64,000 bases of DNA, from NCBI GenBank assembly GCA_046063415.1, contig JBJTMG010000088.1:2608-66607 (forward strand). The letters run 5' to 3'. This DNA comes from Micrococcales bacterium. Lineage in GTDB: Bacteria; Actinomycetota; Actinomycetes; Actinomycetales; Microbacteriaceae. The notes under the pieces are model-generated. The model was not told the origin of the DNA and made no database searches. It was given only the letters and a program-made list of their open reading frames with translations. This document shows positions 9,073 to 42,490 of this stretch, piece by piece. Every line of letters begins with the position of its first letter. Positions within the stretch are counted from its first letter, which is position 1. The position numbers and the translations under genes were made by a program.

Positions 9073-12000
9073 TAGTTTGAGCCAATCTTTTGACCGACAA
9101 CGGCAGAAATACCGTCTTGGCGCATCGAGACTCCGTAGAGCGCGTCAGCGATTTCCATGGTGCGCTTTTGGTGCGTAATGATGATGAGCTGAGAGTTGGT
9201 TCGGAGGTCTTGGAAAATCTGAAGCAGGCGACCAAGGTTGGCGTCGTCAAGGGCTGCTTCGACCTCGTCCATGACATAGAAGGGCGAGGGTCTGGCCTTG
9301 AATATCGCAATCAACAGGGCAACCGCGGCCAATGATCGCTCGCCTCCTGACAGGAGAGACAAGCGTTCAATTTTCTTGCCCGCCGGTTTGACGGTTACTT
9401 CGATGCCAGTGGTCAGCAAGTTCTCTGGGTCAGTTAGGTAGATAGCGCCACTTCCGCCAGGGAAAAGCACAGGAAATACCTGCTCAAAAGCCTTGCGGGT
9501 GTCCTCGAATGCCTCCGCAAAAATGCTCTGCATCTTGGAATCCAATTCCTCGATGATCTGAATCAAGTCCTTGCGCGTCTGGGTGAGGTCTGCCAGCTGC
9601 TCTGTCAAGAATTTATGGCGTTGCTCGAGGGCTGCGAACTCCTCCAAGGCCAACGGATTCACGCGCCCGAGGCGCTCCAATAGCCTTTCGGCCTCGCGAA
9701 GTCGCTTCACTTGCTCTTCAACCACAAACGGCTTAAAGCCACCTTCAACACTTTCGTCAGGTACCTGCTGGTCCGGGCCGAACTCTGCAATCAAAACCTG
9801 CTGTTCCAAGCCGAGTTCATCGTAGGCCTTGCTTGTCAGATTTGCTAGATTCAACCGCTTTTCGTGATTGGAAAGCTCTATGTCGTGAACACTCTGGGTA
9901 AGAGTGGCCAGCTTCATTTGGATCTCAGCGGTTTCGCCCCGGAGACGAACCAATTCGGAGTTTTGATTTGCCCGCTGGGACTCGAGAGTGTGAAGCTGAA
10001 GCTTGGCCTGGCTGGAACTGTCTGCCAGCTTCTCCATGACGATTGGAAGTACATTCAGCACTCGCTTCGCCGCAGCCAAACTGCTTTCACGCGCAAGCTG
10101 GGCAGCAATTTCCCGCTCATTGGCCAGTTTGGCCTCTATTACCTGTTTTTTTAGAAGTGCGACGCGCTCGCGTTCAACGCGCAGGCGCTCATTTGCAGCA
10201 CCCAACTCGATGCGAATGTCCAGTTCCGCTTGACGTTGCACTTCCAAGGATTCGGACAGCCCGACTCGATTACCCAAATCTAGTTCCGGTCTTGGTTGCG
10301 CGGCAAAGGCGTCATGTACCGCAATCGCACTCTGTAGGTTTGATTCGGCCTCGGAAATCTGAACCTGAGTCGCCTGAGCGACTGCACTAAGGCGGTTTAA
10401 CTCGCCCGCCAACGCTTCCACCTGAACGCGCGTGCGACCCAACTTCTCTGCATTTGATGCCAGGTTGGCATCGTGCTCTTTTAGCTTTGCAAGTGCCACC
10501 TTTGAGGTCTCAATGGCAGCCTGGTTTGTCGCACGCAACTCAGCGAGTTGAGCATTCAAAGATTCAAGTTCTTTGGATACCTTGGCCAGACTGCCCTCGG
10601 TAACTTCTCGGTCTGCTACCAGCTCCACCTTGGATGGCTTCTTGCCTGAGCCGCCGCGCAGGACAGAAGACGACAGGACATCGCCATCTCTGGTGATTAC
10701 CGTAACTAAGCCAGCATCAATTTTTGAATAAAGAGCTCGCGCTGCAGCCAGATCATCGACGATTGCCACGTTCTCGAGCAATTTCAGAATTCCTGCCGGC
10801 CCGCTCACAACGGAAATCGCCGAAACCGCTCCCGAAACATCTGGGATGCCGCTTTTAGCTGATGTCCCCTCAACGTCGGCAATCACCAACTCGACTCTGC
10901 CGCCATCCTGGGACTTTAGAAGGCCGAGCGCATCGATGCCAGCCTCTCTGGATTCGGCTACTAGAGCGTCGGCCAAGGTGCCTAGGGCCGCCGCAACCGC
11001 TGTTTCAAAGCCGATTTCAATTTTTAGGTGAGTGGCAACAAGACCACGAATTCCTCGTAGCCCAGAGGAAGCGAGAATCGAGGCACCGTCTTTTTGCTCG
11101 AGGGTGAGATTCAGAGCCGACCGCCGAGAGGATAGCGAGTCTCGTTCACGCTCAGCTTGGTGAATTTGGTCACGAATTGACTCAATGTTTGCCTGAGACT
11201 CGGTGACTGCTTTTTGAGCGGCTTCATACTCCATTTCGAAACCGGAGGAATCGCCTTGGCTTTGGATACCACGCTCCAAGATCTCGTACTCAGCCACCGC
11301 CAGCTGGTGCCGGGTTTGAGCCTGACTTAGAGCGTCTTGGTGACGAAGCAGCTCGGCTCTGAGAGATGCCAATTTGGATTCAGCAACTGCGGCTTCGTTG
11401 GCCAGTTTGGATAACTCAAGATCGAATTTGGAAATCAGCGAGTTCTGTTCGGCAACTTGGTTGTCAAAGGCTTCAAGCGCATCACGTGCAGCGTTTCTGG
11501 CGGTTTCCGCGAGTTCAAGTTTGTGCCTTAACTCGACTACTAGAGATTCAAGATTTTCGGCCTCGCGCTGGGCGTTTGATGCTTCGGCCTCCAGCAACTC
11601 GACGTTGGAAAGCGAACCGGATTCAGTGCTTTGACTCGATAACAGAGCCACCTTCTGAGTGGCAATTGAGAGCAAAGAGCGCAGTCTCTCGGCTATTGAA
11701 TCGAATCGAAATGCCAAATTTCGGGCACGGTCAACATCGTCCGAAACCTGAGCCGCCTCCAATTCGGTTAGGCGTATATGATTCTCGCCAAGCATTGACT
11801 GCAGAATGTTGCGTTCTGCCCGGCGGTCGTTCTCTGTCTTTGCCGTTTCTTCAACGGCCTTTAGAAGTTCAACAATTTCGGCAGCGATGAGTCGTGATTT
11901 GGCATCCCGTAAAACAGAAGCAATTCCCTGCGCTTGCCGTGCGGTCTCCGCCTGTTGACCCAGAGGCTTCAGCTGGCGCCGAACTTCGCCAGCAAGATCA

Positions 12001-12575
12001 TTTAGACGCGTTAGATTAACCTGCATCGCCTCGAGTTTGCGCTCGGTTTTTTCCTTCCGGCGCCTATGTTTCAGGATGCCGGCCGCCTCTTCAATGAAAC
12101 CCCGGCGCTCTTCTGGGGTCGCCTTAAGGACGCTATCCAGCTGACCCTGACCCACAATCACGTGCATTTCTCTGCCCAGACCCGAGTCACTCAGAAGTTC
12201 CTGGACATCGAGTAGGCGGCAGCCTTCACCGTTAATCGCATACTCTGAACCGCCGTTGCGGAACAAGGTTCTGCTAATCGTTACCTCTGCGTAGTCGATT
12301 GGCAAAGCCCCATCGGTGTTGTCAATTGTCAGCAACACCTCAGCTCGGCCTAGCGGACCCTTGGTACTCGTACCCGCAAAAATGACGTCTTCCATTTTTC
12401 CGCCGCGAAGGGTCTTAGCCCCCTGCTCGCCCATTACCCAAGCGAGTGCGTCAACCACATTTGACTTTCCCGAGCCGTTCGGACCAACCACACAGGTCAC
12501 ACCTGGCTCAAAAGCAAAAGTGGTTGGCTGAGCAAAGGACTTAAAACCCTTTAGGGTCAGACTCTTCAGATACAA
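9072..12575 (-). CDS. smc: Chromosome partition protein Smc
   Basis: 1167 aa. It has the N-terminal Walker A GPNGSGKSNVVDA, long coiled coils, a hinge, the C-terminal LSGGERSLAAVALL signature and a Walker B YVMDEVEAALD. Confidence 0.95.
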   Translation of the reverse strand: MYLKSLTLKGFKSFAQPTTFAFEPGVTCVVGPNGSGKSNVVDALAWVMGEQGAKTLRGGKMEDVIFAGTSTKGPLGRAEVLLTIDNTDGALPIDYAEVTISRTLFRNGGSEYAINGEGCRLLDVQELLSDSGLGREMHVIVGQGQLDSVLKATPEERRGFIEEAAGILKHRRRKEKTERKLEAMQVNLTRLNDLAGEVRRQLKPLGQQAETARQAQGIASVLRDAKSRLIAAEIVELLKAVEETAKTENDRRAERNILQSMLGENHIRLTELEAAQVSDDVDRARNLAFRFDSIAERLRSLLSIATQKVALLSSQSTESGSLSNVELLEAEASNAQREAENLESLVVELRHKLELAETARNAARDALEAFDNQVAEQNSLISKFDLELSKLANEAAVAESKLASLRAELLRHQDALSQAQTRHQLAVAEYEILERGIQSQGDSSGFEMEYEAAQKAVTESQANIESIRDQIHQAERERDSLSSRRSALNLTLEQKDGASILASSGLRGIRGLVATHLKIEIGFETAVAAALGTLADALVAESREAGIDALGLLKSQDGGRVELVIADVEGTSAKSGIPDVSGAVSAISVVSGPAGILKLLENVAIVDDLAAARALYSKIDAGLVTVITRDGDVLSSSVLRGGSGKKPSKVELVADREVTEGSLAKVSKELESLNAQLAELRATNQAAIETSKVALAKLKEHDANLASNAEKLGRTRVQVEALAGELNRLSAVAQATQVQISEAESNLQSAIAVHDAFAAQPRPELDLGNRVGLSESLEVQRQAELDIRIELGAANERLRVERERVALLKKQVIEAKLANEREIAAQLARESSLAAAKRVLNVLPIVMEKLADSSSQAKLQLHTLESQRANQNSELVRLRGETAEIQMKLATLTQSVHDIELSNHEKRLNLANLTSKAYDELGLEQQVLIAEFGPDQQVPDESVEGGFKPFVVEEQVKRLREAERLLERLGRVNPLALEEFAALEQRHKFLTEQLADLTQTRKDLIQIIEELDSKMQSIFAEAFEDTRKAFEQVFPVLFPGGSGAIYLTDPENLLTTGIEVTVKPAGKKIERLSLLSGGERSLAAVALLIAIFKARPSPFYVMDEVEAALDDANLGRLLQIFQDLRTNSQLIIITHQKRTMEIADALYGVSMRQDGISAVVGQKIGSN

Positions 12576-20707: not shown

Positions 20708-21028
20708 CTACTCGCCCTGTGGCGGAAGTGCCGAGATAACATCGTGGTCGGCGTCGATTTTTCCGACCTTGCCCGCACCACCAGGTGACCCGATGGTCTC
20801 AAAGAATTCGACGTTCGCCTTGTAGTAGTCGGACCACTGCGAAGGAAGGTCATCCTCGTAGTAGATTGCCTCAACTGGGCAAACCGGCTCGCAGGCACCG
20901 CAGTCAACGCACTCATCGGGGTGAATGTAAAGCATTCGGTCGCCCTCGTAGATGCAGTCAACAGGGCATTCTTCAATGCAGGCCTTGTCTTTGACATCAA
21001 CGCAAGGCAGAGCAATGACATAAGTCAT
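20708..21028 (-). CDS. fdxA: 7Fe ferredoxin
   Basis: 106 aa. TYVIALPCVDVKDKACIEECPVDCIYEG and CVDCGACEPVCPVEAI are cluster-binding motifs. Confidence 0.95.
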   Translation of the reverse strand: MTYVIALPCVDVKDKACIEECPVDCIYEGDRMLYIHPDECVDCGACEPVCPVEAIYYEDDLPSQWSDYYKANVEFFETIGSPGGAGKVGKIDADHDVISALPPQGE

Positions 21029-21089
21029 GTTGGGATCCCTTCGAAAACTGCTTTTATTATCCCATTCCCCAAAGGGCGAAACGTTCTAT

Positions 21090-22223
21090 CTAGCGATGCC
21101 CAGAGGCGTTTTGTCTCCAAACAGCAGGCTGAATCTTTGGGAAGAGCATTATTACCCCGATGAGTACGCTGGAGCCGTAGAGCCACCACGAGCTGATCGT
21201 CGAGTTGGTTACAAACTGTTCTCCGCCTGGCTGATTCGTAGACATCTGAAAAATTGTCGTCAGGAAGCCCAGTGCCATGAGGTACAGGGCGCCTCGACTC
21301 CTTCGGAGAATGCGCAGGGCTAGAGCTAAAGAACCAACCATGAGTAGGGCAACCACTAAGCCAACTGGCAGCACATTGTCCTGGGTCTGGATTAGGTGGA
21401 GCATAGTGCCGGCGATACCTGTTAGGACTCCAGCTGGGAGCGCCCACAGCGAGTGCAACCAAGGCTTCAGCGAATGCCAGTAAGACGGATTGCTCAGCTT
21501 CAACCGCTCTTGCTCCAGATATTCGATCTCTTTGCCAACGACCAACGAATAGGTCTTGTCAAAGGTTTGCACTTGGCTGGCATGTGCTTCAAGAGCACGT
21601 TTTTTGACCTGCGCAGTAGCGGCTGTTCCAACCGAGACATCTGCCCGCTCCCCTGGCTCGGCAATGACCCAAAGCGCCGGTGCCCGGTGCGCTTTGGAAT
21701 ATTGGCGAATAGCCATGGCCGTGGCCTCATAAGCCTTTTTATGATCGGGGTGCCCAAAACCACCCTTGCGGTTGTAGGTCACCACCGCATCTGGACGAAA
21801 ATCCTTCAAGACCTTGAGAATGTCATCGGCGATCACCTGGGTTGCCGCGGCAGAAAGGCTCATTTCATCGAGCATTCGCTTTCTTGCTGGCCGGCCAAAG
21901 GAGTTGATTCGCATGCCCGAATCCAAGTAACTTCTGGTTCCAGCGAAGGCATGCTTTACCTTGTTTTGATCGCTGTTGAATTCTTGAATAGCGTTCATTA
22001 GTTCCGCAGTGCGGAAGGCGCCCATTTCTGGCAAACGACCCTCAAGAGACTTCAAATCCGCCAGCTTAACCTTGCCTCGCTCTCCCCTGGTGAGGGTCAG
22101 AACGAATACTTCGGCGCCGGCAGCAACTCGGTCGGCAATAACGTGACCAGTGAAGAGGCTCTCGTCATCGGGGTGCGCGTGCACCAGCAACAGACGTTTG
22201 GGGTTGAAACTCCGTTTTGCCAT
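21090..22223 (-). CDS. PIG-L/LmbE-family deacetylase (MshB-like by position) fused to a C-terminal membrane domain of about 4 TM segments
   Basis: 377 aa with the VHAHPDDESL and GFGHPDHKKA zinc-site motifs. The last ~130 aa contain four hydrophobic segments (LWALPAGVLTGIAG.., LPVGLVVALLMVGSLALAL, ALYLMALGFLTTIF, WWLYGSSVLIGVIMLF). Confidence 0.8.
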   Translation of the reverse strand: MAKRSFNPKRLLLVHAHPDDESLFTGHVIADRVAAGAEVFVLTLTRGERGKVKLADLKSLEGRLPEMGAFRTAELMNAIQEFNSDQNKVKHAFAGTRSYLDSGMRINSFGRPARKRMLDEMSLSAAATQVIADDILKVLKDFRPDAVVTYNRKGGFGHPDHKKAYEATAMAIRQYSKAHRAPALWVIAEPGERADVSVGTAATAQVKKRALEAHASQVQTFDKTYSLVVGKEIEYLEQERLKLSNPSYWHSLKPWLHSLWALPAGVLTGIAGTMLHLIQTQDNVLPVGLVVALLMVGSLALALRILRRSRGALYLMALGFLTTIFQMSTNQPGGEQFVTNSTISSWWLYGSSVLIGVIMLFPKIQPAVWRQNASGHR

Positions 22224-22268
22224 GGTCTAACTTTACCCAGCCATTCGAGGCTAGGAAATTGCAACTTG

Positions 22269-22287
22269 TTAGGTAAGGCTTACCTAA
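22269..22287. promoter_or_regulatory. IdeR/DtxR-type iron box (perfect 9-1-9 palindrome)
   Basis: TTAGGTAAGGCTTACCTAA fits the TWAGGTWAGSCTWACCTWA consensus at all 19 positions. It lies 33 nt upstream of the FTR1 start and 46 nt upstream of the divergent PIG-L gene start. Confidence 0.85.
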
Positions 22288-22319
22288 CTAAACTAGAGGT
22301 AAGAAAGGAACAACTGATA

Positions 22320-23132
22320 TTGTTTGCTAACTATCTAATCGGCCTTCGCGAAGGTCTTGAAGCCGCTCTCATCGTAGGAATCTTGTGCGCTTACCTGGTC
22401 AAGCTGGGGCGCACCAGAGACATTTCTAAAATCATGGCGGGCGTGGCACTTGCCATAGCCCTTTGTATTGGCGTGGGTCTTTTACTCACTGCCATTGAGT
22501 CTTCGCTTCCCCAAGGCACCGAGGAGATCATCGCAGGATTCACATCTCTGATCGCGGTGGTGTTCGTAACTTGGATGATTTTCTGGATGGCCAAAGAGGC
22601 CCGGCACATGGGGGTAAACCTTCGCGGTCGCGTAGACACCGCACTGGGTGGATCAGTAATTTCGTTGGCCCTGGTGGCATTCTTCGCTGTGATCCGAGAG
22701 GGAATCGAGACCAGCATTTTGCTCTGGTCCTCTACCAAATCTCTGGGTCAAGATTCAGCGCCAATATGGGGCGCATTCCTAGGCCTCAGCACAGCAGCTG
22801 TTCTGGGTTACCTGCTTTACAAGGGAGCCCTCAAGGTTAATCTGAGCCTTTTCTTCAAGTGGACTGGGGCCTACCTCATTGTGGTCGCAGCAGGCATTTT
22901 GTCTTACGGGATACACGAGCTTCAGGAAATTGGGTGGCTGCCAATCCTGGGTTCGGATTTCTATAACTTCTCAGCCGTTATCTCTGAAGGTTCAGTTGTT
23001 GAGGCCATTCTGAAAGGAATGGTTTCATTTGATTCCTCGCCCAGCTGGTTGCAGGCTGTGGCTTGGGTCCTTTACCTGGTCCCAGTGGCAGCGCTTTACT
23101 GGCGCTCAACCGTGCGAAAAGTAGGTAAATAA
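22320..23132 (+). CDS. FTR1/EfeU-family high-affinity iron permease
   Basis: A TTG at 22320 follows GAAAGGAA; the track ORF start at 22143 overlaps the divergent gene. It is 270 aa with two REXXE motifs (REGLEA, REGIET) in TM helices and about 7 TM segments. Confidence 0.85.
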   Translation: MFANYLIGLREGLEAALIVGILCAYLVKLGRTRDISKIMAGVALAIALCIGVGLLLTAIESSLPQGTEEIIAGFTSLIAVVFVTWMIFWMAKEARHMGVNLRGRVDTALGGSVISLALVAFFAVIREGIETSILLWSSTKSLGQDSAPIWGAFLGLSTAAVLGYLLYKGALKVNLSLFFKWTGAYLIVVAAGILSYGIHELQEIGWLPILGSDFYNFSAVISEGSVVEAILKGMVSFDSSPSWLQAVAWVLYLVPVAALYWRSTVRKVGK

Positions 23133-23203
23133 CCGCAGATAAGACCCGTTTTGCTCCCGTCCTTGGCTAGTGTTTTAGCATCCAAGCGATAGGGGTAGCT
23201 TTT

Positions 23204-26200
23204 ATGGCGACTAACAGCGGCTTTGTGTCTCCAATTTGTAAGCACAAAATCTCGGATGATTCCTACGATGAGAGTGGCATAGCAACCTGTGGTTGTGGCT
23301 ACAGATTCTCAAAGGCAACAGTCAACGAGTACGTTGAGGCTGAAGCCGACGCCATGGCGATTAACCGCGAGTACCAGTCGGCACTAACTCGCCTCGAGGA
23401 GCTGCGCAGACGCCTGATCGCGGAATCGGTAGTAAATGGAGCAGCAAGCAGCAGCGCCAAGAGTTTCACCGCTTCAAAGGTAGCCTCGACTTCTGTCGCG
23501 ACCAAAGCGCCAAGGCCCGAGAAACCGGCAAAGCCATCGCGGCCAAGCCGACCAAAACGCGCCCCGCTGAGCCCAAGAACTCTTCTTTTTATCGTGGGCG
23601 GAAGCCTAGTGCTGATTGCATTCAGCGTGTTCTTTGCCACCACCTGGAAGGACATTCCACCGGTGGGTCAAGCGGCGGTTGTTCTCTTCGCCGTCTTCCT
23701 CGCGGGGTTCGGTGCTATCAAGGCTCGAGACCGCATTAGGAACTTGGCCAATTTCCTGAGCACGCTTTCATCGGCGCTACTCATGCTTGGCCTGTATGCG
23801 GCGGGTCTATTGGGAATGCTCCCAGCCGAAACCATCGATGTCTCAAAATCGCTTTATTTACCCGCCAGCTTTGCAGTTGTAGGCATTTTGAGTCAACTTG
23901 CAGGTCGACGCTTCAAGATAGCGGGCTGGCTGTCAATGGGTCCTATCGGGCTGGCTCTCGCTTCAGGTTTAGCCTCACTGGGTTTTCTTAGCGCACAACT
24001 CGCAAACACCGGAAGTGCCGAATTCGGTTGGTTGATGCTGACGCTGAGCGCAGGCGGGATTCTGGTTGCCATTTCGGGGAGATATTCAAAACTCGAGATT
24101 CCCGACATAAAGAAACCAACCGAGACTGAGCAGTTCTTGATCGCTGATATCGAGGGTGAGATCCGGCGCGATCGCATGGTGGTTCGGCTAGCGTATCTTG
24201 CAACCCTTTCCCAACTGACGCTGGTTCTGCTCCTGGGTATTGTGGAGGCACTTAAGCTTGGGTCGCTTGACTCGTGGGGTCTGGTAGCGCTCGGTGTCTT
24301 CTGGCTAGGGGCAGCCACCGGCCTAGAAAGAATCGGAGGCAAGTTCACCGAGTCTGGCAAGGTCAATGGCAAGGTTCTCACCGGATCCTGGGTCATGGCA
24401 TTTGCGCCTTTTGGACTCGCGACTGTGGGTTGGGCTACTCAACTGGAGCTTGTAAACGCACCCAACTACAGCAGTCTCCTGATTTCGGCTGCAGTGGCAG
24501 CACTCATTGCGTTTTCAGTGCATTTTGTCTCGGAATTCAAGAAGCACGAACATGCGGTAAGTGGCGCCTACGCGAGCACCTGGGCCACTTGGGCATCCTG
24601 GCTGATATTGACCAATCAGTTTTCGCTTGGAAATGACCGGCAGATTCAAGTCTTTGCCGTGCTGCTTTTCTTGATTGCGGCAACTTGGTTTTGCATTCGT
24701 GCGATATCAAACCCAGACGCACTTCAGTTGGTGTCAGTAATTCCGGCAGTTACTGGGGCAACAATCTGGATGTTCAACTCCCACGCCTCGCTCGAAGCCT
24801 ATGAGAATGTGTCAGCCGCACTAGCTCTTAATCTCTACCTGGTTAGCATGGTCATCGCATCCACCGCACTCGCGCACGCTGCGCTAGAACAGCGCTTGGG
24901 CAAAGAACCCAGCAGAGTGACCACTTACCTGATTGCATTTGGAAGTGTTGCAACTGTTTTGGGATCTTTGCCTAGAGCCAGCGAGTTATGGCAAATCGGT
25001 GGGACCCAGTTCAACATGTTGGAACTCTGGCCACTTCTTGGAATTACCTTGTTGGTGGCGGTAATGGCTCTCGCTTCACAACGGAATGAATGGATAGCCG
25101 GCCACCACACCCTGCGGCGCCTGACGAGCATTCAGGGCATCACACTGATGGCAGGTAGTTTCCTTCAGGTGAGTTTGGCTGCCGCCATCAGTTACCAACA
25201 GAACTTGGGAACAGTGCTTGTGCTAGTGAGCATTGCAAACCTGGCAATCGCATTTGTTTACGGCATCTGGACAAAGAGCCGGGTCTTCTTATACGGCGCG
25301 CTGTCAGTTGCAACCGTTCTTGCTGTGAGCTTTGATGCCCTACTTATGCGCGACTTGCACTACTACGGTTGGCAGCAGGTTTGGCCTTCGACACTTTTAA
25401 TTATTCTTTTGGCGGTAGCGATCCTCTGGGCTCTTAACGGGACTGGAAAGAAGCCCGCGCCCGCCTCGCTGGGTGGCTTTACCGCGGCCTTGTCGCTTGT
25501 TTATTTCGGACACGTGGTATTGGCTTTCCGAGCTTTCGCTGTGTACATTCCAGAGTCACAGTTCAATGCCTGGCTAAACACAATAACCCTGTTGGCTGTT
25601 GGAGCGGTTGGTCTGCTGGCTAGCCACTCGACTCCCGTGAAAAAGATTGCAGGACTCGATGTCCTGGCCGAGCGGCTAGGGAGCCTTTCACTGATAGCCG
25701 CTCCGATCATTGCCATGCTAGCTTCCTCGGGAACCTCTCAGGTTTACCGCCTCGCAGTGGTGTCTATCGTGGCAACCGGTGTTGCAGTTTTCAAAGCCAG
25801 AGCTACCGGTTCGCACAACTGGGCATTAGGTGCACTCACACTTGGTGGCGTTGGGATCTGGTTCTATGTCATTGCCCTCATCACGGCATTGATTCCAATC
25901 GGCCTAGACCTCACGAGCGCAGCCATCGTTGGTTGCTATGTCACCCTGGGCGGTCTGGCGGTTTGGAACAGTAGCTATCGCAGACTCACGCATGACAAAG
26001 TGAGTTCGGCAGAGTCCGTGCCACTCCCGATTATCGAGATTTTAGCCCTTGGGTCGGCAGTTTCGTGGCTCACCGGGTACACCGGAATGATGTACCTAGC
26101 CATGACAGGTCACTTTGATTGGCCTTCGGCGGGAGTCCTTGAGGGCAACATTTCACCAGAGTTACCCGCGGTGCTTTCAATGTTGGCGCTGGTCTGGGTG

Positions 26201-27811
26201 CTCATTTTTGCCAGGATTCGCTCCGCAAAAAACCGAGGCTTTTTCAATGGTCACCTTATGAATCTTGCGTTCATAGCATTCGGCTATGGCGTAATTTCGC
26301 TGCTTCTAAACGACGGTACGGGGAATCCTTCTCGACTCCTCTTGTCTGCAGTTGCATTTATTGGATTTGCAGCTGCGGTGGCTCTAGACGGTTTCTTCAG
26401 CCACAACCGAAACTACCTGGTGACTGGATTCGTGAGCTCGGTCTTGGGCTTTTGGGCTCTTGCAGCCTGGTTGCTTCTGGATCAAGATTTGGTTCTGGCT
26501 CAGCTCTTTAATTTTGGTGCCATTCTGAGCTTCATTGTCACCACCTGGCTACTGCGCCGAAATCCAGCAGGATTCAACCTGAATAGCTGGTCCGTAGTAC
26601 TACCAGTGGTGTCATCGCTTTCGATAGTGATCGGTTTGACCCTTCGCGGCATGAACCCGGTAGTAAACCAGCCCAAGTTGCTTTGGGATTTGGAGTGGAT
26701 TATTGGCTTGGCGCTCTCCGTTGCCTACCTGTTCGCTAGCCGCCACAGGGCACTCAAGGGCCTTGACAGGGCACGAAATAGCACAATGGCCAGCGCCGCA
26801 CTATCTTGGCTCCTCAGCGCACCCTACGTAGTCGTGCTTCCTAGCCCTGGCGCACTTGAGGGTCATTGGGTAGCTCTCGCTTACTTCGGTATTTCACTTC
26901 TGAACCTGTTTACATTCGCCAGAAAGTTTGCCAGCAAAACAGCGCTCTTTGTCGGTTACCCAATAGCGATTCTGTTTGCTCTGGCACTGCGCCAGTTGCT
27001 CAGGGACCTCTTCGCGGTAAATGTTAACGGCCCTGAGCTGTTTGCTCTTGGTTTGACTATCTGGACGTTCCTGGCATCGTGGCTGTACCTAAAGACCTTT
27101 GAAGCTCCAAGGCGCACACTCTACAGTTGGGGTATCCCCGCAGGTACTGCACTTCTACCCTCTGCCGCCTACTTGGCCTTCAATAGCTCACAGCCACTCA
27201 GTGCGCAATCAACCGAGGACGTCTTGCGACTTGTGTTGCTAGCAATTGTTGCCACTGGACTGCTGGTTGCCGGAATGCGCATTGGGAATTTAGGCTTGAC
27301 GGCCGCCAGCACAACTGCGCTCCTAGTCGCCTTGGTGCCATCGCTCTATTACCGCATCGATGACATCTTCACCTCGGTTGCTCTCAGGGGCGAGATGAAG
27401 GCCCTGTTGGTTGCGGTTACGGTTTACGTCTTGCTGTATCTATTGCAACGAACTCGCAAGATTGAGCTTCCAAGTCTGGTCGCGTGGGGCTTGCCAACAG
27501 TCATTGCTCTGAGCGTTACTCTGATCGACGCTCTCAACGCCCTGCAAAAAACAACATTGGACACCGAGGATTGGGTGAGATTTGCGGTTTTGATTGCAGT
27601 TGGAACTGCGGTTTTGGTCCTTGGGGCGATACGCAAAATCGGTGGCTTCTTCTACCCCGGCCTAATTTCTGTATTGGCCGCAGCCATTCCTTACGCCTTC
27701 AAGCCCGGAGGCATTGGCCTTTGGCTGATTCTACTTAGCCTTGCGGCTCTTATCGTTTGGGTTGCCGTGCGCCTCGACCGCTTCACCGGTTGGTTGAAGC
27801 AACTCAGGTAG
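23204..27811 (+). CDS. Giant polytopic membrane protein (1535 aa) with a cytoplasmic Cys/His knuckle, coiled coil and Pro/Lys-rich linker at the N-terminus; function unknown
   Basis: A single uninterrupted ORF. The N-terminus has ICKHK...TCGCG (CxH-x14-CxC), a heptad-like helix (EYVEAEADAMAINREYQSALTRLEELRRRL) and KAPRPEKPAKPSRPSRPKRAP. By eye, roughly 40 hydrophobic helices then run to the C-terminus. Confidence 0.8.
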   Translation: MATNSGFVSPICKHKISDDSYDESGIATCGCGYRFSKATVNEYVEAEADAMAINREYQSALTRLEELRRRLIAESVVNGAASSSAKSFTASKVASTSVATKAPRPEKPAKPSRPSRPKRAPLSPRTLLFIVGGSLVLIAFSVFFATTWKDIPPVGQAAVVLFAVFLAGFGAIKARDRIRNLANFLSTLSSALLMLGLYAAGLLGMLPAETIDVSKSLYLPASFAVVGILSQLAGRRFKIAGWLSMGPIGLALASGLASLGFLSAQLANTGSAEFGWLMLTLSAGGILVAISGRYSKLEIPDIKKPTETEQFLIADIEGEIRRDRMVVRLAYLATLSQLTLVLLLGIVEALKLGSLDSWGLVALGVFWLGAATGLERIGGKFTESGKVNGKVLTGSWVMAFAPFGLATVGWATQLELVNAPNYSSLLISAAVAALIAFSVHFVSEFKKHEHAVSGAYASTWATWASWLILTNQFSLGNDRQIQVFAVLLFLIAATWFCIRAISNPDALQLVSVIPAVTGATIWMFNSHASLEAYENVSAALALNLYLVSMVIASTALAHAALEQRLGKEPSRVTTYLIAFGSVATVLGSLPRASELWQIGGTQFNMLELWPLLGITLLVAVMALASQRNEWIAGHHTLRRLTSIQGITLMAGSFLQVSLAAAISYQQNLGTVLVLVSIANLAIAFVYGIWTKSRVFLYGALSVATVLAVSFDALLMRDLHYYGWQQVWPSTLLIILLAVAILWALNGTGKKPAPASLGGFTAALSLVYFGHVVLAFRAFAVYIPESQFNAWLNTITLLAVGAVGLLASHSTPVKKIAGLDVLAERLGSLSLIAAPIIAMLASSGTSQVYRLAVVSIVATGVAVFKARATGSHNWALGALTLGGVGIWFYVIALITALIPIGLDLTSAAIVGCYVTLGGLAVWNSSYRRLTHDKVSSAESVPLPIIEILALGSAVSWLTGYTGMMYLAMTGHFDWPSAGVLEGNISPELPAVLSMLALVWVLIFARIRSAKNRGFFNGHLMNLAFIAFGYGVISLLLNDGTGNPSRLLLSAVAFIGFAAAVALDGFFSHNRNYLVTGFVSSVLGFWALAAWLLLDQDLVLAQLFNFGAILSFIVTTWLLRRNPAGFNLNSWSVVLPVVSSLSIVIGLTLRGMNPVVNQPKLLWDLEWIIGLALSVAYLFASRHRALKGLDRARNSTMASAALSWLLSAPYVVVLPSPGALEGHWVALAYFGISLLNLFTFARKFASKTALFVGYPIAILFALALRQLLRDLFAVNVNGPELFALGLTIWTFLASWLYLKTFEAPRRTLYSWGIPAGTALLPSAAYLAFNSSQPLSAQSTEDVLRLVLLAIVATGLLVAGMRIGNLGLTAASTTALLVALVPSLYYRIDDIFTSVALRGEMKALLVAVTVYVLLYLLQRTRKIELPSLVAWGLPTVIALSVTLIDALNALQKTTLDTEDWVRFAVLIAVGTAVLVLGAIRKIGGFFYPGLISVLAAAIPYAFKPGGIGLWLILLSLAALIVWVAVRLDRFTGWLKQLR

Positions 27812-27827
27812 CAAAGGGTTCCAAAAG

Positions 27828-27868
27828 ACGAAACCCCGCACCAAACGTAGGTGCGGGGTTTCGTTTTG
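27828..27868. terminator. Bidirectional intrinsic terminator between the giant membrane gene (+) and typA (-)
   Basis: A 15-bp perfect stem ACGAAACCCCGCACC / GGTGCGGGGTTTCGT with a 7-nt loop. It is flanked by an A-run upstream and TTTTG..TTTTT downstream. Confidence 0.85.
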
Positions 27869-27881
27869 AGTTTTTATTGGC

Positions 27882-29792
27882 CTATGCCTCGTTTGCTCGC
27901 TTGCGAGCCGAAACCTGGCGAGCACGGATGGTTGGATCCAACTCAACCTTACGAATGCGCACGGCTTCCGGAGTTACCTCGACACACTCGTCCTCGCGAG
28001 CAAACTCTAAACACTCTTCGAGCGAAAGCTTGCGCGGAGGGGTCAAAGACTGGAACTCATCTGACGAAGAAGCGCGCATGTTGGTGAGCTTCTTTTCCTT
28101 GGTGATGTTCACTTCCATGTCGTCTGCGCGCGAGTTCTCGCCTACAACCATGCCTCCGTAGACCTCTTCGGTTGGCTGGACAAAGAACGAACCGCGCTCC
28201 TGCAGCGCGACCATGGCGAACGGAGTTGCAACTCCGGCACGGTCGGCAACCATAGAACCGGTGTTGCGTGTGACAATCTCGCCAGCCCAAGGCTCGTAAC
28301 CGGCCGAAATAGCATTTGCGATACCGGTTCCCTTGGTGGTGGTCAAGAACTCGGTACGGAAACCAATGAGACCACGCGAAGGAATCCGGAACTCCATGCG
28401 AACCCAGCCGGTGCCGTGGTTAGACATGTTGTTCATGCGACCCTTGCGCGATGCCATTAGCTGGGTAATCGCGCCCAAGAATTCTTCGGGGACATCGATG
28501 GTTAGGTCCTCAACTGGCTCGTTTAGCTTGCCGTCGATGCGCTTGGTAACCACCTGAGGCTTTCCAACGGTAAGTTCGTAGCCTTCGCGGCGCATCTGCT
28601 CTACCAAAATTGCAAGCGCTAGCTCACCACGGCCCTGAACTTCCCAGGCGTCTGGACGCTCGGTTGGAAGTACCTTGATTGACACGTTTCCGATAAGTTC
28701 GCGATCCAGGCGGTCCTTGACCAGACGTGCCGTGACCTTGGCACCCTTGACACGACCGGCCATTGGCGAGGTGTTGATTCCAATGGTCATCGAGATGGCT
28801 GGGTCATCTACTGTGATCATGGGTAGGGGTCGTACATCGTCAGGGTCAGCAAGAGTCTCACCAATGGTGATGTCTTCAATACCCGCAACCGCAACAATGT
28901 CACCAGGGAAAGCCTGGTCCGTTGGGTAACGCTCAAGAGCGCGGGTTGCCAAGAGCTCCGTGATCTTAACTGTCTTGGTGGTACCGTCCTGACGAACCCA
29001 AGCTACGTTTTGGCCCTTCTTTAGAGTGCCGTTGAAGATGCGTAGGAGGGCCAAACGACCAAGGAACGGGGAGGCGTCTAGGTTGGTGACGTGTGCCTGC
29101 AATGGGTGCTCGTCATCGTAGGTTGGAGCCGGAATGTGCTTGAGAATGGCACCAAACAGGGGCTCTAGGTCATCGTGGTCTGGAAGAGTTCCGTCAGCCG
29201 GCTTATTGAGGCTGGCACGACCAGCGCGACCCGATGCGTAGATCACCGGTAGTTCAAGAATGCCATCGATGTCGAGGTCTGGGACATCATCGGCTAGGTC
29301 GCTGGCTAGACCCAAGAGCAAGTCGTGGGTCTCCTCAACAACCTCGTCGATTCGAGCGTCAGGGCGGTCGGTCTTGTTAACCAAAAGGATCACCGGAAGC
29401 TTGGCCTCGAGTGCCTTACGAAGCACAAATCGAGTCTGCGGTAGCGGACCCTCGGATGCGTCTACAAGCAGCACAACTCCATCAACCATGGACAAACCGC
29501 GCTCCACCTCGCCACCAAAGTCGGCGTGGCCTGGGGTGTCGATTACGTTGATGGTGATGGTTTTGCCATTGGCCGCGGGACCCGAATAGGAAACCGCGGT
29601 GTTCTTGGCCAAAATGGTGATTCCCTTTTCACGCTCGAGGTCACCCGAGTCCATAACACGCTCGCCTACAGCGGCGTGAGAGTCAAAGGAGTTGGTCTGA
29701 CGCAACATGGCGTCAACCAGAGTTGTTTTACCGTGGTCAACGTGAGCCACGATTGCAACGTTACGAAGTTCATCTCTGCTTACCAGAGCCAT
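27882..29792 (-). CDS. typA: Translational GTPase TypA/BipA
   Basis: ATG at 29792 follows AAAGGA. MALVSRDELRNVAIVAHVDHGKTTLVD, DTPGHADFGGE and NKTDR are G boxes. 636 aa. Confidence 0.95.
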   Translation of the reverse strand: MALVSRDELRNVAIVAHVDHGKTTLVDAMLRQTNSFDSHAAVGERVMDSGDLEREKGITILAKNTAVSYSGPAANGKTITINVIDTPGHADFGGEVERGLSMVDGVVLLVDASEGPLPQTRFVLRKALEAKLPVILLVNKTDRPDARIDEVVEETHDLLLGLASDLADDVPDLDIDGILELPVIYASGRAGRASLNKPADGTLPDHDDLEPLFGAILKHIPAPTYDDEHPLQAHVTNLDASPFLGRLALLRIFNGTLKKGQNVAWVRQDGTTKTVKITELLATRALERYPTDQAFPGDIVAVAGIEDITIGETLADPDDVRPLPMITVDDPAISMTIGINTSPMAGRVKGAKVTARLVKDRLDRELIGNVSIKVLPTERPDAWEVQGRGELALAILVEQMRREGYELTVGKPQVVTKRIDGKLNEPVEDLTIDVPEEFLGAITQLMASRKGRMNNMSNHGTGWVRMEFRIPSRGLIGFRTEFLTTTKGTGIANAISAGYEPWAGEIVTRNTGSMVADRAGVATPFAMVALQERGSFFVQPTEEVYGGMVVGENSRADDMEVNITKEKKLTNMRASSSDEFQSLTPPRKLSLEECLEFAREDECVEVTPEAVRIRKVELDPTIRARQVSARKRANEA

Positions 29793-40868: not shown

Positions 40869-40938
40869 AGTAAATCGGGTTTTGGGTTTCGAGAAACCGC
40901 CTTCGCACTCAGATCGCAAAACTGCGAAAGGTTTCGAA

Positions 40939-41922
40939 ATGTTCGAGACAAAAAAATCTGGGTTGCGCACTATCGCAACATTCACAATAGCCGTCATGCT
41001 TTTCGCTGGCGCTGGGCAAAGCGCTCATGCCAAGGAGAGCGCGAACCAAACGACTGTTAAGTTTCTGCAATCAAAGTTTGTAGCAGGAAAATACATCGAG
41101 GGTTTCACTCCTGGCAAAGCTGACTATGGCTTCACTCTTGAAGCCTTGCTGCAAAGAAAGGCTTTAGGCGAAAAATCTTCTGCCTTGGCCAAAGCTGTTC
41201 GCTTCAACCTCGTGAACACTTCGGTGGTGGGCGTATCCCCGTCAGTTCCCGGCTACCTTTTTGATTCCGAAGGGAAGCTGAATGTTGGACTTGCCGGAAA
41301 GTTTGCCTTTGTTAGCCAGGCCATGAAGGCACCGAACGGTAAGCTTCGCAGCAAGATTTTGCAAAAAATCAAAGCCAGCTTTGGCTCAAATGGCGACCTC
41401 AAGGATGCCTCAGCAACTACTTTCGACCGCTCCTGGGTAATTCTTGGGCTCGCCGCAAACGGGAACCCAAAGCAGGCCCAGAGGCTTGGGCTGGCTCTTC
41501 AACAAACTCAACTTTCTGACGGTGGCTTCAACGATGGCTACACGCTTGATGCCAGCGCAACCGACGGTACGGGTATTGCCTTGCAGGCCTTGGCCGCAAC
41601 CAGAAACCTTGGATCGACCGAGGTCAAAAGCAAGACAGGGACGAGTATCGCTAAGGCAGTTCAGTATCTGAGAGGCACCCAGGTAAATGGTGATCACTGG
41701 GAAGCCTGGGGTGACTACAACACCAACGGAACCGCCTACGCTGCCATGGGAATCATCGCAGCCGGAAGCCCGAGTCTTGGAATAGCCACTTGGCTCAAGA
41801 ACAAGCTTTCAAGCGATGGCGGGCTGGTCACTCCTTGGTCCGGTGGTTCCGGAGATACTTACGCCACGGCTCAATCAGTGGTTCCCATGTTGAATCTCAG
41901 TTACCTAAGCCTGCTCAGCTGA
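40939..41922 (+). CDS. Secreted protein with alpha/alpha-toroid (prenyltransferase/terpene-cyclase-like) repeats; candidate B12-binding alpha domain
   Basis: ATG at 40939 follows GAAAGG. It is 327 aa with the signal peptide ..AGAGQSAHA|KE and the repeated motifs QLSDGGF, LSSDGGL, TGIALQAL, TAYAAMGI and YATAQSV. It is the first gene after the B12 riboswitch. Confidence 0.6.
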   Translation: MFETKKSGLRTIATFTIAVMLFAGAGQSAHAKESANQTTVKFLQSKFVAGKYIEGFTPGKADYGFTLEALLQRKALGEKSSALAKAVRFNLVNTSVVGVSPSVPGYLFDSEGKLNVGLAGKFAFVSQAMKAPNGKLRSKILQKIKASFGSNGDLKDASATTFDRSWVILGLAANGNPKQAQRLGLALQQTQLSDGGFNDGYTLDASATDGTGIALQALAATRNLGSTEVKSKTGTSIAKAVQYLRGTQVNGDHWEAWGDYNTNGTAYAAMGIIAAGSPSLGIATWLKNKLSSDGGLVTPWSGGSGDTYATAQSVVPMLNLSYLSLLS

Positions 41923-41926
41923 CCTT

Positions 41927-42490
41927 ATGAACCGAAAGTTTTTGCGCTGGACTCTGGTTGGCATGGTCGCTCTGGTTACCCTGGGGGCTGTGGCCCCCGG
42001 GGTCATGGCCAATCTGGGCCTCGAGATCAGTTTGGTTAGCCCAACATCCTTGGCTGGCGCAAAAACCTCTGCGGGTTGGTGTCGAGACCGTGGTGTTTCA
42101 GTTGTAGTTGATTTTGGACAGCAATCGGGAAAACCAATACAGGTGAGCTGCGTTGTGGGTCCAAAACTAACCGGTTGGGACCTTCTAACTGCCGCCGAGC
42201 TGGGGCCTGTTGGAACAGCGCAATACCCCACCGGGTTCGTCTGTCGTCTGGCGAATTTTCCACCCGCTAACACGCAAGATTGCTCCGACACTCCAACGTA
42301 TTCAGAGGGAACCTGGGCCTACTACTTTGCCACCGCCGAAGCGGGCAACCACTGGATGTTCAGCGGAGCCGGTTCGCAGCAGCGCAGCCCCGACTGCGGA
42401 ACCGTGGAGGGTTGGGTTTTCGAGTTGAATCACACCGATGGTTTGGCAGACGGGCCAAGAATAAAACCTGAGGCCTTCCGGTGCCGCTAG
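41927..42490 (+). CDS. Secreted Cys-rich protein, DUF4430-like (transcobalamin beta-domain-like)
   Basis: 187 aa with the signal peptide ..APGVMA|NLG and six Cys. The pattern VSVVVDFG..TGWDLL..GFVCRL..GTWAYY..WMFSGAG..VEGWVF is as I recall for DUF4430. It starts 4 nt after the previous gene. Confidence 0.55.
   Translation: MNRKFLRWTLVGMVALVTLGAVAPGVMANLGLEISLVSPTSLAGAKTSAGWCRDRGVSVVVDFGQQSGKPIQVSCVVGPKLTGWDLLTAAELGPVGTAQYPTGFVCRLANFPPANTQDCSDTPTYSEGTWAYYFATAEAGNHWMFSGAGSQQRSPDCGTVEGWVFELNHTDGLADGPRIKPEAFRCR

Follow-up and report, generated by a model that had tools for sequence, protein, structure and literature searches.

Gene arrangement and regulatory elements of the locus

The stretch of DNA that was analysed (64,000 nt of a Micrococcales bacterium contig, hereafter the window) carries one uninterrupted ORF at 23204..27811 on the forward strand, which begins with an ATG and encodes 1,535 aa plus a stop codon, just as the original prediction had stated. 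The product, referred to below as the giant protein, is identical to ACKORF_06035, an NCBI protein from a metagenome-assembled genome (MAG) annotated as 'hypothetical protein [Micrococcales bacterium]'. The gene directly upstream on the same strand (22320..23132, TTG start at 22320) was identified as efeU, encoding an FTR1-family iron permease of 270 aa, which scored 316.8 bits with NF041756 (cut-off 255) and 176 bits with PF03239 and bears the REGLE and REGIE motifs.

The divergent intergenic region between an mshB-like gene and efeU contains a palindromic iron box of the IdeR/DtxR type, TTAGGTAAGGCTTACCTAA (22269..22287), located 32 nt before the start codon of efeU. This sequence is unique within the window, where the number of chance matches expected is 0. 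It was found with 19/19 identity upstream of FTR1 in two further loci (L001 and L003), and with 1 mismatch in the FTR1-only loci L040/41 and L044/45. It agrees at 17 of 19 positions with the IdeR consensus (TTAGGTTAGGCTAACCTAA) and keeps the palindrome, which makes the region upstream of efeU a predicted promoter of an IdeR/DtxR-regulated operon.

The 71-nt spacer between efeU and the giant gene (23133..23203, forward strand) includes a GGGG ribosome-binding site, and the terminator scan revealed no terminator-like site in it; its fold does not exceed that of shuffled sequence in stability (z = −0.37). Little of the spacer is shared by the loci except the GGGG in front of the ATG. In the window it contains a −10-like TAGCAT element, which the other loci do not conserve, as a candidate for a promoter belonging to the giant gene itself. 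Downstream, the giant gene and the convergent typA are separated by a bidirectional intrinsic terminator at 27825..27867, whose 18-bp stem contains 10 GC pairs and precedes a T-run. Thus, both the gap lacking a convincing terminator and the strong terminator behind the giant gene had been correctly recognized, and with the IdeR-type box upstream of efeU they make the proposed co-transcription of the two genes plausible: in the window genome and its close relatives, the giant gene is probably read through from the IdeR-box-controlled efeU promoter. An Rfam search over positions 21000–29000 found nothing.

The N-terminal cytoplasmic part

The first approximately 123 aa of the giant protein are soluble, in good agreement with the 120 residues predicted, and consist of three predicted elements encoded consecutively on the forward strand. 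Residues 6–36 (23219..23311) are a predicted cytoplasmic zinc ribbon with the knuckles C12-x-H14 and C29-x-C31, of which only the possible CxH/CxC motif had been noted before. None of the four ligands (C12-K-H14 and C29-G-C31) varies among the three close homologues of alignment A1, and the pattern C-x-[HDC]-x(8-30)-C-x-[CH], mostly in the form C-x-H...C-x-C, is present in 34 of the 39 family members of at least 1,100 aa, as well as in a short SCO7613-type protein (P0065); in the AF2 model this segment forms four short strands (pLDDT ~85). The coiled-coil-like helix suspected to follow was modelled as a single 45-residue cytoplasmic helix at aa 37–81 (23312..23446; pLDDT ~80–86). The third element, aa 82–123 (23447..23572), comprises a Ser/Ala stretch and the Pro/Lys/Arg-rich KAPRPEKPAKPSRPSRPKRAP, and was modelled by AF2 as disordered, with pLDDT <50 over aa 78–113, so the Pro/Lys linker of the original prediction appears to be a disordered Pro/Lys/Ser-rich tether. 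It ends in the basic juxtamembrane sequence RPKRAPLSPR, with 9 Lys and Arg residues just before TM1. A ZAS-type anti-sigma factor was considered as well and rejected, as the motif differs and a sigma factor gene is absent nearby.

Transmembrane array and fold predictions

From aa 124 to 1525 (23573..27778, forward strand) the protein consists of hydrophobic helices throughout, and no soluble domain was found in this part. A crude hydropathy count gave 42–45 helices, while the two overlapping AF2 models combined contain 46, with short loops and both termini in the cytoplasm; assuming this topology, 69 Lys and Arg residues lie inside versus 10 outside. The giant protein thus probably crosses the membrane 46 times according to the models, and the approximately 40 segments estimated by eye, although rightly placed all the way to the C-terminus, were a slight undercount. 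The longest loop has about 38 aa and those facing outside at most ~23 aa. The outside loops are net acidic, and conserved acidic residues occur at the extracytoplasmic starts of helices (GPE, DW.RF, and RIDD); such an acidic outer face would suit cation handling.

The models reached pLDDT 90.5 with pTM 0.82 and pLDDT 82 with pTM 0.64, and high confidence obtained from an alignment of 54 sequences implies coevolving contacts. Foldseek searches with both models gave 0 matches against the PDB at E ≤ 1e-3 and nothing against BFVD. The best weak matches were soluble helical-repeat proteins (designed toroids, TPR, and HEAT solenoids) with TM-scores of 0.1–0.25, and no GT-C, flippase, transporter, channel, MFS, ABC, RND, or Piezo fold was among the matches listed, which is in line with the earlier impression that the architecture fits no nameable transporter family. 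Going by the kind of these matches, all with TM-scores ≤0.25, the models bear a weak resemblance only to soluble alpha-solenoids, and a solenoid-like appearance may also arise because AF2 may stack successive hairpins by default.

Internal repeats and the conserved C-terminal module

A unit of about 97 aa with four helices recurs in the array, in three confident copies and perhaps six (hhalign probabilities of 93–99% for three copies and 67–79% for three more). The confident copies, all on the forward strand, lie at aa 1053–1138 (26360..26617; 93%, E 2.7e-07 when the subfamily alignment was compared with the repeat alignment by hhalign, and an i-E of 0.086 with the HMM alone), aa 1231–1323 (26894..27172; repeat HMM i-E 8.4e-19, hhalign 99.1%), and aa 1346–1442 (27239..27529; i-E 1.5e-19, hhalign 98.6%). 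Relatives carry 3–6 tandem copies, and their number differs from one relative to another. At the level of sequence, these matches demonstrate that tandem duplication of this four-helix unit built up the array at least in part, a duplication that had only been suspected originally. When the giant protein was compared with itself using only 3 sequences, no convincing repeat emerged (best probability 34%), and the repeat was detected only later because the exhaustive search supplied distant members of the family.

The most conserved part of the protein is the C-terminal module at aa 1443–1535 (27530..27808, forward strand), as shown by the invariant columns of alignments A3 and A6. Its motifs are DW.RF, G..R...G.F.PG, and P(Y/F), followed by the basic amphipathic tail W.KEL(K/R).

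Relation to SCO7613-type and DUF2157 proteins

A resemblance to SCO7613-like proteins, which the original prediction had suggested, proved real but distant. The giant protein itself gave no match at E ≤ 0.01 to NF047321 (SCO7613_CTERM, cut-off 45 bits), and its relatives P0055, P0021, and P0051 scored 32.4, 26, and 18.7 bits, all below the cut-off. Only P0065, a metagenomic protein of 611 aa, passes it with 61.1 bits, and P0065 is reached from the giant family at both ends: the C-terminal module by family profile A2 (E 2.8e-4 in a search of 1.84e9 proteins), and the N-terminal TM module by hhalign of alignment A1 over aa 127–270 (98% probability, E 2.4e-13). Moreover, the repeat HMM matches residues 417–507 of P0065 at 7e-14. 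Based on these profile-level links, the C-terminal module is related to SCO7613_CTERM, and aa 124–270 of the giant protein are homologous to the TM module that stands first in SCO7613-type proteins.

This first TM module (23573..24013, forward strand) is DUF2157-like. PF09925 matched aa 120–236 with its model positions 34–141 of 146 at 31.0 bits (E 2.4e-07), a significant score just under the gathering cut-off of 32.4, and the match was weaker still in P0002, P0003, P0015, and the L003 protein. No further domain was revealed by the Pfam and NCBIfam scan of the giant protein, and the likeness to DUF2157 lies in the first TM module. DUF2157 has been unified with the LiaI-LiaF-TM 4TM sensory domain, and zinc ribbon (ZnR) fusions have been reported in that group (PMC11237479).

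The order of elements is also shared with SCO7613-type proteins, which begin with a C-x-H...C-x-C knuckle and a first TM module resembling DUF2157, continue with more TM helices, and end in a C-terminal module that bears the DW.RF and G..R...G.(F/L).PG motifs as well as a basic tail. Unlike these proteins (611 aa for P0065 and ~82 kDa for SCO7613; PMC8313934), the giant protein exceeds them in length by a factor of two to two and a half, with 46 TM helices in 1,535 aa, and its family is restricted to freshwater MAGs. We concluded that it is an expanded, distant relative of the uncharacterised SCO7613_CTERM/DUF2157 membrane proteins. SCO7613 has been claimed to be a PHA synthase (PMC8313934); this was rejected for the giant protein, which consists of TM helices and gave no alpha/beta-hydrolase match, and the authors of that study regard the effect as indirect.

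Distribution of the family

The exhaustive profile search yielded 63 matches among 1.84 billion representatives; most of them are 1,200–1,700 aa long, and most have only the last ~290 aa in common. All members looked up were 'hypothetical proteins' from MAGs, and the family, as found so far, is rare and confined to uncultured freshwater Micrococcales/Actinomycetota. The word-index protein searches were of almost no use with so hydrophobic a protein, giving 3 matches for the whole protein and 4 for the C-terminal profile. The scan of GTDB representatives found 3 loci, which is not a census, since its two peptide patterns are specific to the close subfamily, and the metagenome scan used the narrower alignment A4. 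Searches of PDB sequences, PADLOC, and PHROGs with the giant protein found nothing.

Association with the FTR1 permease gene

The functional coupling to FTR1 and iron that was implied by the original prediction was not confirmed by the survey of family loci, as just 5 of the 37 loci have FTR1 upstream of the giant gene and no consistent co-occurrence was seen. The giant gene directly follows efeU in the window, L001, L002, L003, and L007, the next upstream gene being different in L003. The slot between the mshB-like gene and typA is occupied by the giant gene without FTR1 or iron box in L014 and L029, and by FTR1 without the giant gene in L038, L039, and L042–L045, thus all three combinations occur in one syntenic position. 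At the other family loci, no FTR1 was detected in the flanking sequence retrieved, and the neighbours in other lineages include GH13, MalEFG and other maltose genes, TreS-maltokinase, heliorhodopsin, and LysE, among others. In several loci the iron box or a variant of it accompanies FTR1, and none was detected in loci that lack FTR1. Related genomes have either gene without the other, so their adjacency is a lineage-specific arrangement; and because the box accompanies only FTR1, any iron regulation of the giant gene would be due to its position in this lineage and not a trait of the family. The giant proteins of the window and L007 are 37% identical over the last 300 aa, and the adjacency has been kept across this deep divergence, so some selective benefit of co-expression is possible.

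These data also bear on the proposal that the giant protein serves EfeU as an accessory partner specific to this lineage, which would replace the EfeO/EfeB, P19, or cupredoxin partners, be co-expressed with the permease under iron limitation, and either use its acidic outer face to collect iron or pass it on, or stabilize the permease in the membrane. Like the partner genes of the EfeUOB, FetMP/P19, and FtrABCD systems, the giant gene adjoins an FTR1-family permease gene, here directly 3′ of an iron-box-controlled efeU with which it is probably co-transcribed. The gene order persists despite the differing upstream gene of L003 and the divergence noted above, the spacer has no terminator, the iron box is conserved, and EfeO and EfeB are encoded neither adjacently nor by any of the 19 other window ORFs scanned. 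Additional membrane proteins are known to have been recruited to FTR1 systems, e.g., in C. jejuni. However, the giant protein has no homology to EfeO, EfeB, P19, FtrB, or FtrD, and with outside loops of at most ~23 aa it has no extracytoplasmic domain; no metal-binding or redox domain was found there with Pfam and NCBIfam, and no metal site is recognisable. Unlike a dedicated partner, the giant gene occurs independently of FTR1, in L014 and L029 even in the same slot and without the box, and FTR1 alone fills that slot in six loci with no partner gene beside it. We consider such a role unlikely.

Possible function of the giant protein

Taken together, the architecture favours, with a probability of about one half, a membrane-embedded helical-repeat scaffold or sensor that would be no dedicated subunit of the iron permease and would be iron-responsive here only by its position. 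The TM array may occupy the membrane, read its state, or bind a membrane-embedded partner, while the tethered zinc ribbon and the long helix would bring in or retain a partner in the cytoplasm. The model for this is the role of membrane anchor or sensor proposed for LiaI-LiaF-TM (DUF2157) modules, which share with the giant protein a four-helix membrane unit. In contrast to the Lia/Psp systems, Toastrack, PspC, PspA/LiaH, and two-component genes were found neither within the protein nor nearby, and the four-helix unit is set in a 46-helix array. Iron responsiveness would arise only because the gene lies behind efeU with no terminator between them, so that transcription from the IdeR-box-controlled promoter may read through into it.

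A more far-reaching version, which must be regarded as rather doubtful, makes the giant protein the first member of a new membrane-protein architecture, a transmembrane alpha-solenoid in which one chain supplies all 46 helices, grown by four-helix duplication into an extended or curved membrane platform, to which partners would be coupled by a zinc-ribbon/coiled-coil handle; in the clade of the window it may also be the sole operon partner of a stand-alone EfeU. Piezo mechanosensitive channels, with 38 TM helices and nine four-helix repeat units, are likewise very large single chains built partly of repeated four-helix units. Nevertheless, the giant protein has no sequence similarity to Piezo, no Foldseek match to it among those listed, and no cap or pore module; it is bacterial, and has more helices (46). 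A Piezo homologue was rejected, as no fold match appeared in that listing.

A transporter or channel of a new type, or a flippase or polymerase of lipid- or polyprenol-linked polymers, whose helices would provide at least one translocation pathway, is less likely again than an accessory partner of EfeU. In its favour are the great size of this polytopic protein and the conserved G/P/D/R/W motifs at the helix ends, and its rapid divergence recalls Wzy-type polymerases, which diverge fast in sequence. Sugar-metabolism genes (GH13, MalEFG, and TreS-maltokinase) neighbour it in other lineages, and deletion of SCO7613 lowers storage-polymer accumulation in S. coelicolor, even though the authors themselves think this effect indirect (PMC8313934). 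On the other hand, no transporter, GT-C, flippase, or channel fold was among the Foldseek matches listed, no such family came up in the searches of Pfam, NCBIfam, and PDB sequences, no extracytoplasmic loop is of a size suited to catalysis, and orthologues differ in their number of repeats, which would be atypical of a transporter. It is highly improbable that the gene is a decaying one or a fast-evolving, unconstrained membrane 'filler' whose apparent conservation merely reflects hydrophobic composition, for although it diverges fastest at the locus (22–40% identity in the N-terminal and 29–52% in the C-terminal part, L001 excepted, versus 72–98% for TypA) and its length and repeat number vary, the 4.6-kb frame is intact in every full-length locus, the zinc ligands and loop motifs are conserved across the family (knuckle pattern in 34/39), and both the very strong positive-inside signal (69/10) and the coevolving contacts implied by AF2 speak against it.

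If the models are right, the giant protein has one of the largest TM-helix counts known for one polypeptide and is without structural or functional precedent. It is a confidently modelled target for examining how very large helical-repeat arrays are inserted into and used in bacterial membranes. The SCO7613/DUF2157 proteins, in turn, gain a modular anatomy of zinc ribbon, tether, first TM module, variable four-helix repeats, and conserved C-terminal module. For iron biology the outcome is mostly negative but useful, as adjacency alone gives no ground for annotating the giant neighbour as an iron-uptake component, and in these streamlined freshwater actinobacteria EfeU often stands alone behind an IdeR box.

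Structure of the giant gene and its N-terminal region

The giant gene is genuine and not an artefact. As originally predicted, it is a single unbroken 4.6-kb ORF (23204..27811, + strand) of 1535 codons with an ATG start, and its product is identical to the NCBI entry 'MAG: hypothetical protein ACKORF_06035 [Micrococcales bacterium]'. Every N-terminal feature listed in that prediction was found as well. The residues C12-K-H14 and C29-G-C31 are invariant among close homologues, and in an AlphaFold2 (AF2) model built on an alignment of 43 family sequences, aa 6–36 are predicted to form four short strands in the shape of a zinc ribbon, aa 37–81 one 45-residue helix, while aa 82–123, including the Ser/Ala run and KAPRPEKPAKPSRPSRPKRAP, appear disordered. 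A knuckle of the form C-x-[HDC]...C-x-[CH], mostly C-x-H...C-x-C, occurs in 34 of the 39 family members of at least 1100 aa. Some members carry one or two additional TM segments N-terminal to it: in a subgroup comprising P0020, P0030, P0051, P0055, and others, the knuckle lies at aa ~92–132, after 1–2 extra hydrophobic helices, and a single extra helix would turn it toward the cell exterior.

Transmembrane array, predicted fold, and repeats

Between aa 124 and 1525 the protein consists of hydrophobic helices only, joined by short loops. A crude hydropathy scan gave 42–45 segments, and two overlapping AF2 models (aa 1–1200, pLDDT 82, pTM 0.64; aa 1036–1535, pLDDT 90.5, pTM 0.82) combined to a predicted 46 helices. 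Thus, the earlier estimate of about 40 was slightly low, although its picture of dozens of helices without a large soluble domain beyond the N-terminal region was right. When the N-terminus is placed inside, the 46-helix topology has 69 Lys and Arg in the inside loops versus 10 outside, and the basic C-terminal tail is inside, too. The sole low-confidence stretch within the array (aa 936–982, nt ~26009–26149, pLDDT <50), made up of helix 942–968 and a loop bearing HFDWPSAGVLEGNISPE, coincides with the most acidic and longest outside loop.

Foldseek comparison of both models with the PDB returned no match at E ≤ 1e-3, and none was obtained against BFVD. The best weak matches (TM-scores 0.1–0.25) were designed alpha/alpha toroids, helical barrels, and TPR/HEAT-type solenoids such as SKI3, importins, and cohesin SA2; transporter, GT-C glycosyltransferase, flippase, and Piezo structures were absent from the PDB matches listed. 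The earlier statement that the architecture fits no nameable transporter family therefore stands, and 46 predicted TM helices in confident models without any fold match make the protein striking. The kind of matches gives the impression of a 'membrane alpha-solenoid', a term which may be apt but does not come from measured geometry.

Self-comparison of the protein from three sequences revealed no repeat. In distant family members, a tandem repeat is obvious, with a four-helix unit of ~97 aa and the consensus ...WR..R.K..W..AGY...GPE.YS...WGLP.A..LPS..Y, and an HMM iterated starting with one unit found 3–6 tandem copies in such members. The same HMM located copies in the giant protein at aa 1230–1323 (i-E 8e-19) and 1346–1442 (i-E 1.5e-19), to which profile-profile comparison with a subfamily alignment (n = 11 sequences) added aa 1053–1138 (93%) and the weaker candidates aa 680–750 (77%), 223–262 (79%), and 854–948 (67%). 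Copy number varies among orthologues. The suspected internal duplication of TM modules was thus confirmed for the C-terminal third; it likely extends to more of the array.

Kinship to SCO7613/DUF2157 proteins

The only Pfam match of the giant protein was DUF2157 (aa 120–236, E 2.4e-07), at 31.0 bits against a cut-off of 32.4. NCBIfam, PADLOC, and PHROGs gave no match, and neither the C-terminal profile nor the N-terminal 125 aa retrieved anything usable among PDB sequences. In an exhaustive HMMER search of 1.84 billion cluster representatives with a profile of aa 340–1535, just 63 proteins were retrieved at E ≤ 1e-3, 54 of them at E ≤ 1e-30. They are mostly 1200–1700 aa long, with homology common to the last ~290 residues only. 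All members looked up were unnamed proteins of MAGs labelled Micrococcales or Actinomycetota; the family has so far been seen in uncultured freshwater actinobacteria only, and no characterised homologue was found.

The weakest match to the family profile, P0065 (611 aa), passes the NCBIfam model NF047321 'SCO7613 C-terminal domain' with 61 bits, while distant giant members score 18.7–32 bits, under its 45-bit cut-off. Like the giant proteins, P0065 possesses a zinc knuckle (SPYCEHQ...CACG) and a DUF2157-like first module, and hhalign joined it to the query alignment over aa 127–270 with 98% probability (E 2.4e-13). Taken together, the NF047321 score, the shared knuckle and module, and the hhalign match argue that the giant proteins form a divergent, expanded branch of the SCO7613/DUF2157 group, so the originally suggested resemblance to SCO7613 was a good lead. 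The query itself falls short of the curated cut-offs and by that standard is not a member; it is most fittingly classed as a giant, repeat-expanded version of these named, uncharacterised membrane proteins. Deletion of SCO7613 in S. coelicolor reduced polyhydroxyalkanoate accumulation, an effect considered probably indirect by the authors (PMC8313934).

Genomic context and the proposed link to iron

The gene directly upstream encodes the FTR1-family iron permease EfeU (NF041756, 316.8 bits vs. a cut-off of 255). The mechanical ORF (22143..23132, 329 aa, GTG start) is too long and runs into the 5′ end of the mshB-like gene. Judged by its homologues and by the REGLE motif, efeU really begins at TTG 22320 (270 aa), and the protein read from there contains LFANYLIGLREGLE plus a second motif, REGIE. 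A perfect palindrome, TTAGGTAAGGCTTACCTAA, lies at 22269–22287 and is unique in the window, with 0 expected by chance. This IdeR/DtxR-type iron box is situated in the mshB-like/efeU shared intergenic region (22224–22319), 46 nt from the mshB-like start, so it could act on both genes. No terminator-like site was found in the 71-nt stretch from efeU to the giant gene, and a terminator with an 18-bp stem (27825–27867) stands between the latter and the convergent typA, both as predicted. Folding of the 71-nt stretch is no more stable than that of shuffled sequence (z = −0.37). Rfam gave no family match over 21000–29000.

For comparison, 37 family loci (the window and L001–L037 from related genomes, minus L013, which had no ORF clustering with the family) were gathered by looking up proteins and by a single scan each of GTDB and of metagenomes, and annotated by tblastn and clustering. 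In only five of them (window, L001, L002, L003, and L007) is the giant gene immediately preceded by FTR1, in the slot between the mshB-like gene and typA; the upstream edge of L002 is unseen and the upstream gene of L003 differs. In L014 and L029, the slot holds the giant gene only, adjoining the divergent mshB-like gene, without an iron box. The contexts of four EfeU homologues (54–57% identity) were also inspected. Three of these led to six loci (L038, L039, L042–L045) where FTR1 abuts typA in the same slot without the giant gene, and the fourth to L040/41, where FTR1 comes after the mshB-like gene and is followed by other genes. In L042 and L043, the efeU 3′-end overlaps the typA end by a few bases. 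Since both-together, giant-only, and FTR1-only arrangements all occur, the two genes are independent occupants of one variable slot. Among typA-type loci, two subclades retain the pair and a third lacks it; the giant proteins of the first two are only ~37% identical over the last 300 aa. The adjacency is stable in the window lineage, yet required by neither gene. The comparative context did not bear out the proposed tie of the giant gene to FTR1 and iron, which is largely positional.

The iron box accompanies FTR1, being identical in L001 and L003, variant in L007, and with one mismatch in L040/41 and L044/45. Its 19 bp are the same in the window (within 22224–22319) and L003 (within 6930–7060) despite the divergence of L003, where EfeU shares only 59% identity with its window counterpart, the giant protein only 38% over its first 330 aa, and efeU is preceded by a different gene, for dihydroorotate dehydrogenase. 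Identity across the window, L001, and L003 is unusually strict conservation for an operator. No EfeO/EfeB gene was found adjoining the FTR1 genes of these loci; EfeU alone behind an IdeR-type box, with no adjacent EfeO/EfeB or P19 gene, occurs in many related freshwater Micrococcales genomes (L038, L039, L040–L045).

In 11 of the 37 loci (L008, 2970–5936; L022, L025–L028, L030, L033, L034, L036, L037), the short P0065 included, the family gene stands beside GH13 alpha-glucosidase-like genes and malEFG. GH13 genes, which are the commonest non-housekeeping neighbours, comprise alpha-glucosidase-like genes, maltodextrin glucosidase, and a TreS-maltokinase fusion. The malEFG genes are close to the family gene in L025 and, judging from cluster membership, also in L033 and L037. 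The P0065 gene of L008 follows the TreS-maltokinase fusion on the same strand after a 65-nt gap. Heliorhodopsin genes (PF18761, E about 1e-92) adjoin the giant gene at four loci in two arrangements: divergent and upstream with an unannotated 153-aa gene between (L011, 4696–5505; L021, 4620–5429), or convergent and downstream (L015, 6640–7449); in L020 (6030–6839), heliorhodopsin is apparently split over two ORFs. Other neighbours encode LysE, a branched-chain-type permease, GH2, and an HrpA-like helicase.

Proposed role

We propose, with a probability of about 0.5 for the whole reading, that the TM array is a membrane-embedded helical-repeat scaffold or sensor, that its tethered zinc ribbon and helix would engage a cytoplasmic partner, and that here the gene is probably transcribed by read-through from the predicted IdeR-controlled efeU promoter. 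The anatomical and comparative parts (anatomy, topology, repeat origin, SCO7613/DUF2157 kinship, lack of a known fold, and independence from FTR1) are regarded as established and stand on considerably firmer ground than the functional part. The latter draws on the varying repeat number and the fast divergence of most of the array, while loop motifs and zinc ligands are fixed. Such variable repeats with fixed motifs are typical of structural repeat proteins, whereas transporters usually hold their helix count fixed. Consistent with this role are the lack of an extracytoplasmic domain and of a transporter-like fold, and the zinc ribbon and long helix on a disordered tether, which resemble an interaction module. 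Furthermore, the only related domain with functional literature, DUF2157/LiaI-LiaF-TM, has been described as a membrane module of four helices with a 'sensory' or anchoring role, at times fused to zinc ribbons (PMC11237479).

It is unlikely that the protein is an FTR1 accessory in the window's clade: the adjacency is kept between widely diverged loci and the outside loops have a net acidic charge, but each gene occurs independently of the other and the giant protein has no metal-binding domain. A new transporter or polymer-handling enzyme, for which size, fast evolution, and sugar-gene neighbours are the sole positive points, seems more doubtful still. Functionless filler or a decaying gene is highly improbable: the frames are intact, motifs are invariant, the charge distribution follows the positive-inside rule, and the confidence of the AF2 models implies coevolution. 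The protein would be of high interest should a transmembrane-solenoid architecture, or a real role alongside EfeU, be confirmed.

Other genes of the window

The G+C content is ~53% throughout the window, and the flanking genes are housekeeping ones (recG, rsmD, citrate synthase, dapC, ferredoxin), with the PIG-L/MshB-like deacetylase, typA, and an Opp-type ABC system further among them. The mshB-like gene (21090–22223, − strand) scores under the equivalog cut-offs for MshB and Mca, and its product has a C-terminal extension weakly matching the membrane family DUF6113 (aa 265–353, E 2.9e-4). The typA ORF (662 aa) is probably ~25 codons too long, its homologues being 633–641 aa. Elsewhere, a Tad-pilus-like T2SSE/T2SSF pair, an fn3-domain subtilase, an ECF-type CbiQ with a double-ABC ATPase, and a 346-aa ORF without Pfam match jointly occupy 55858–57725 (−), 57930–59933 (−), 42481–45056 (+), and 40882–41922 (+), and an ORF of 1167 aa lies at 9072–12575 (−).
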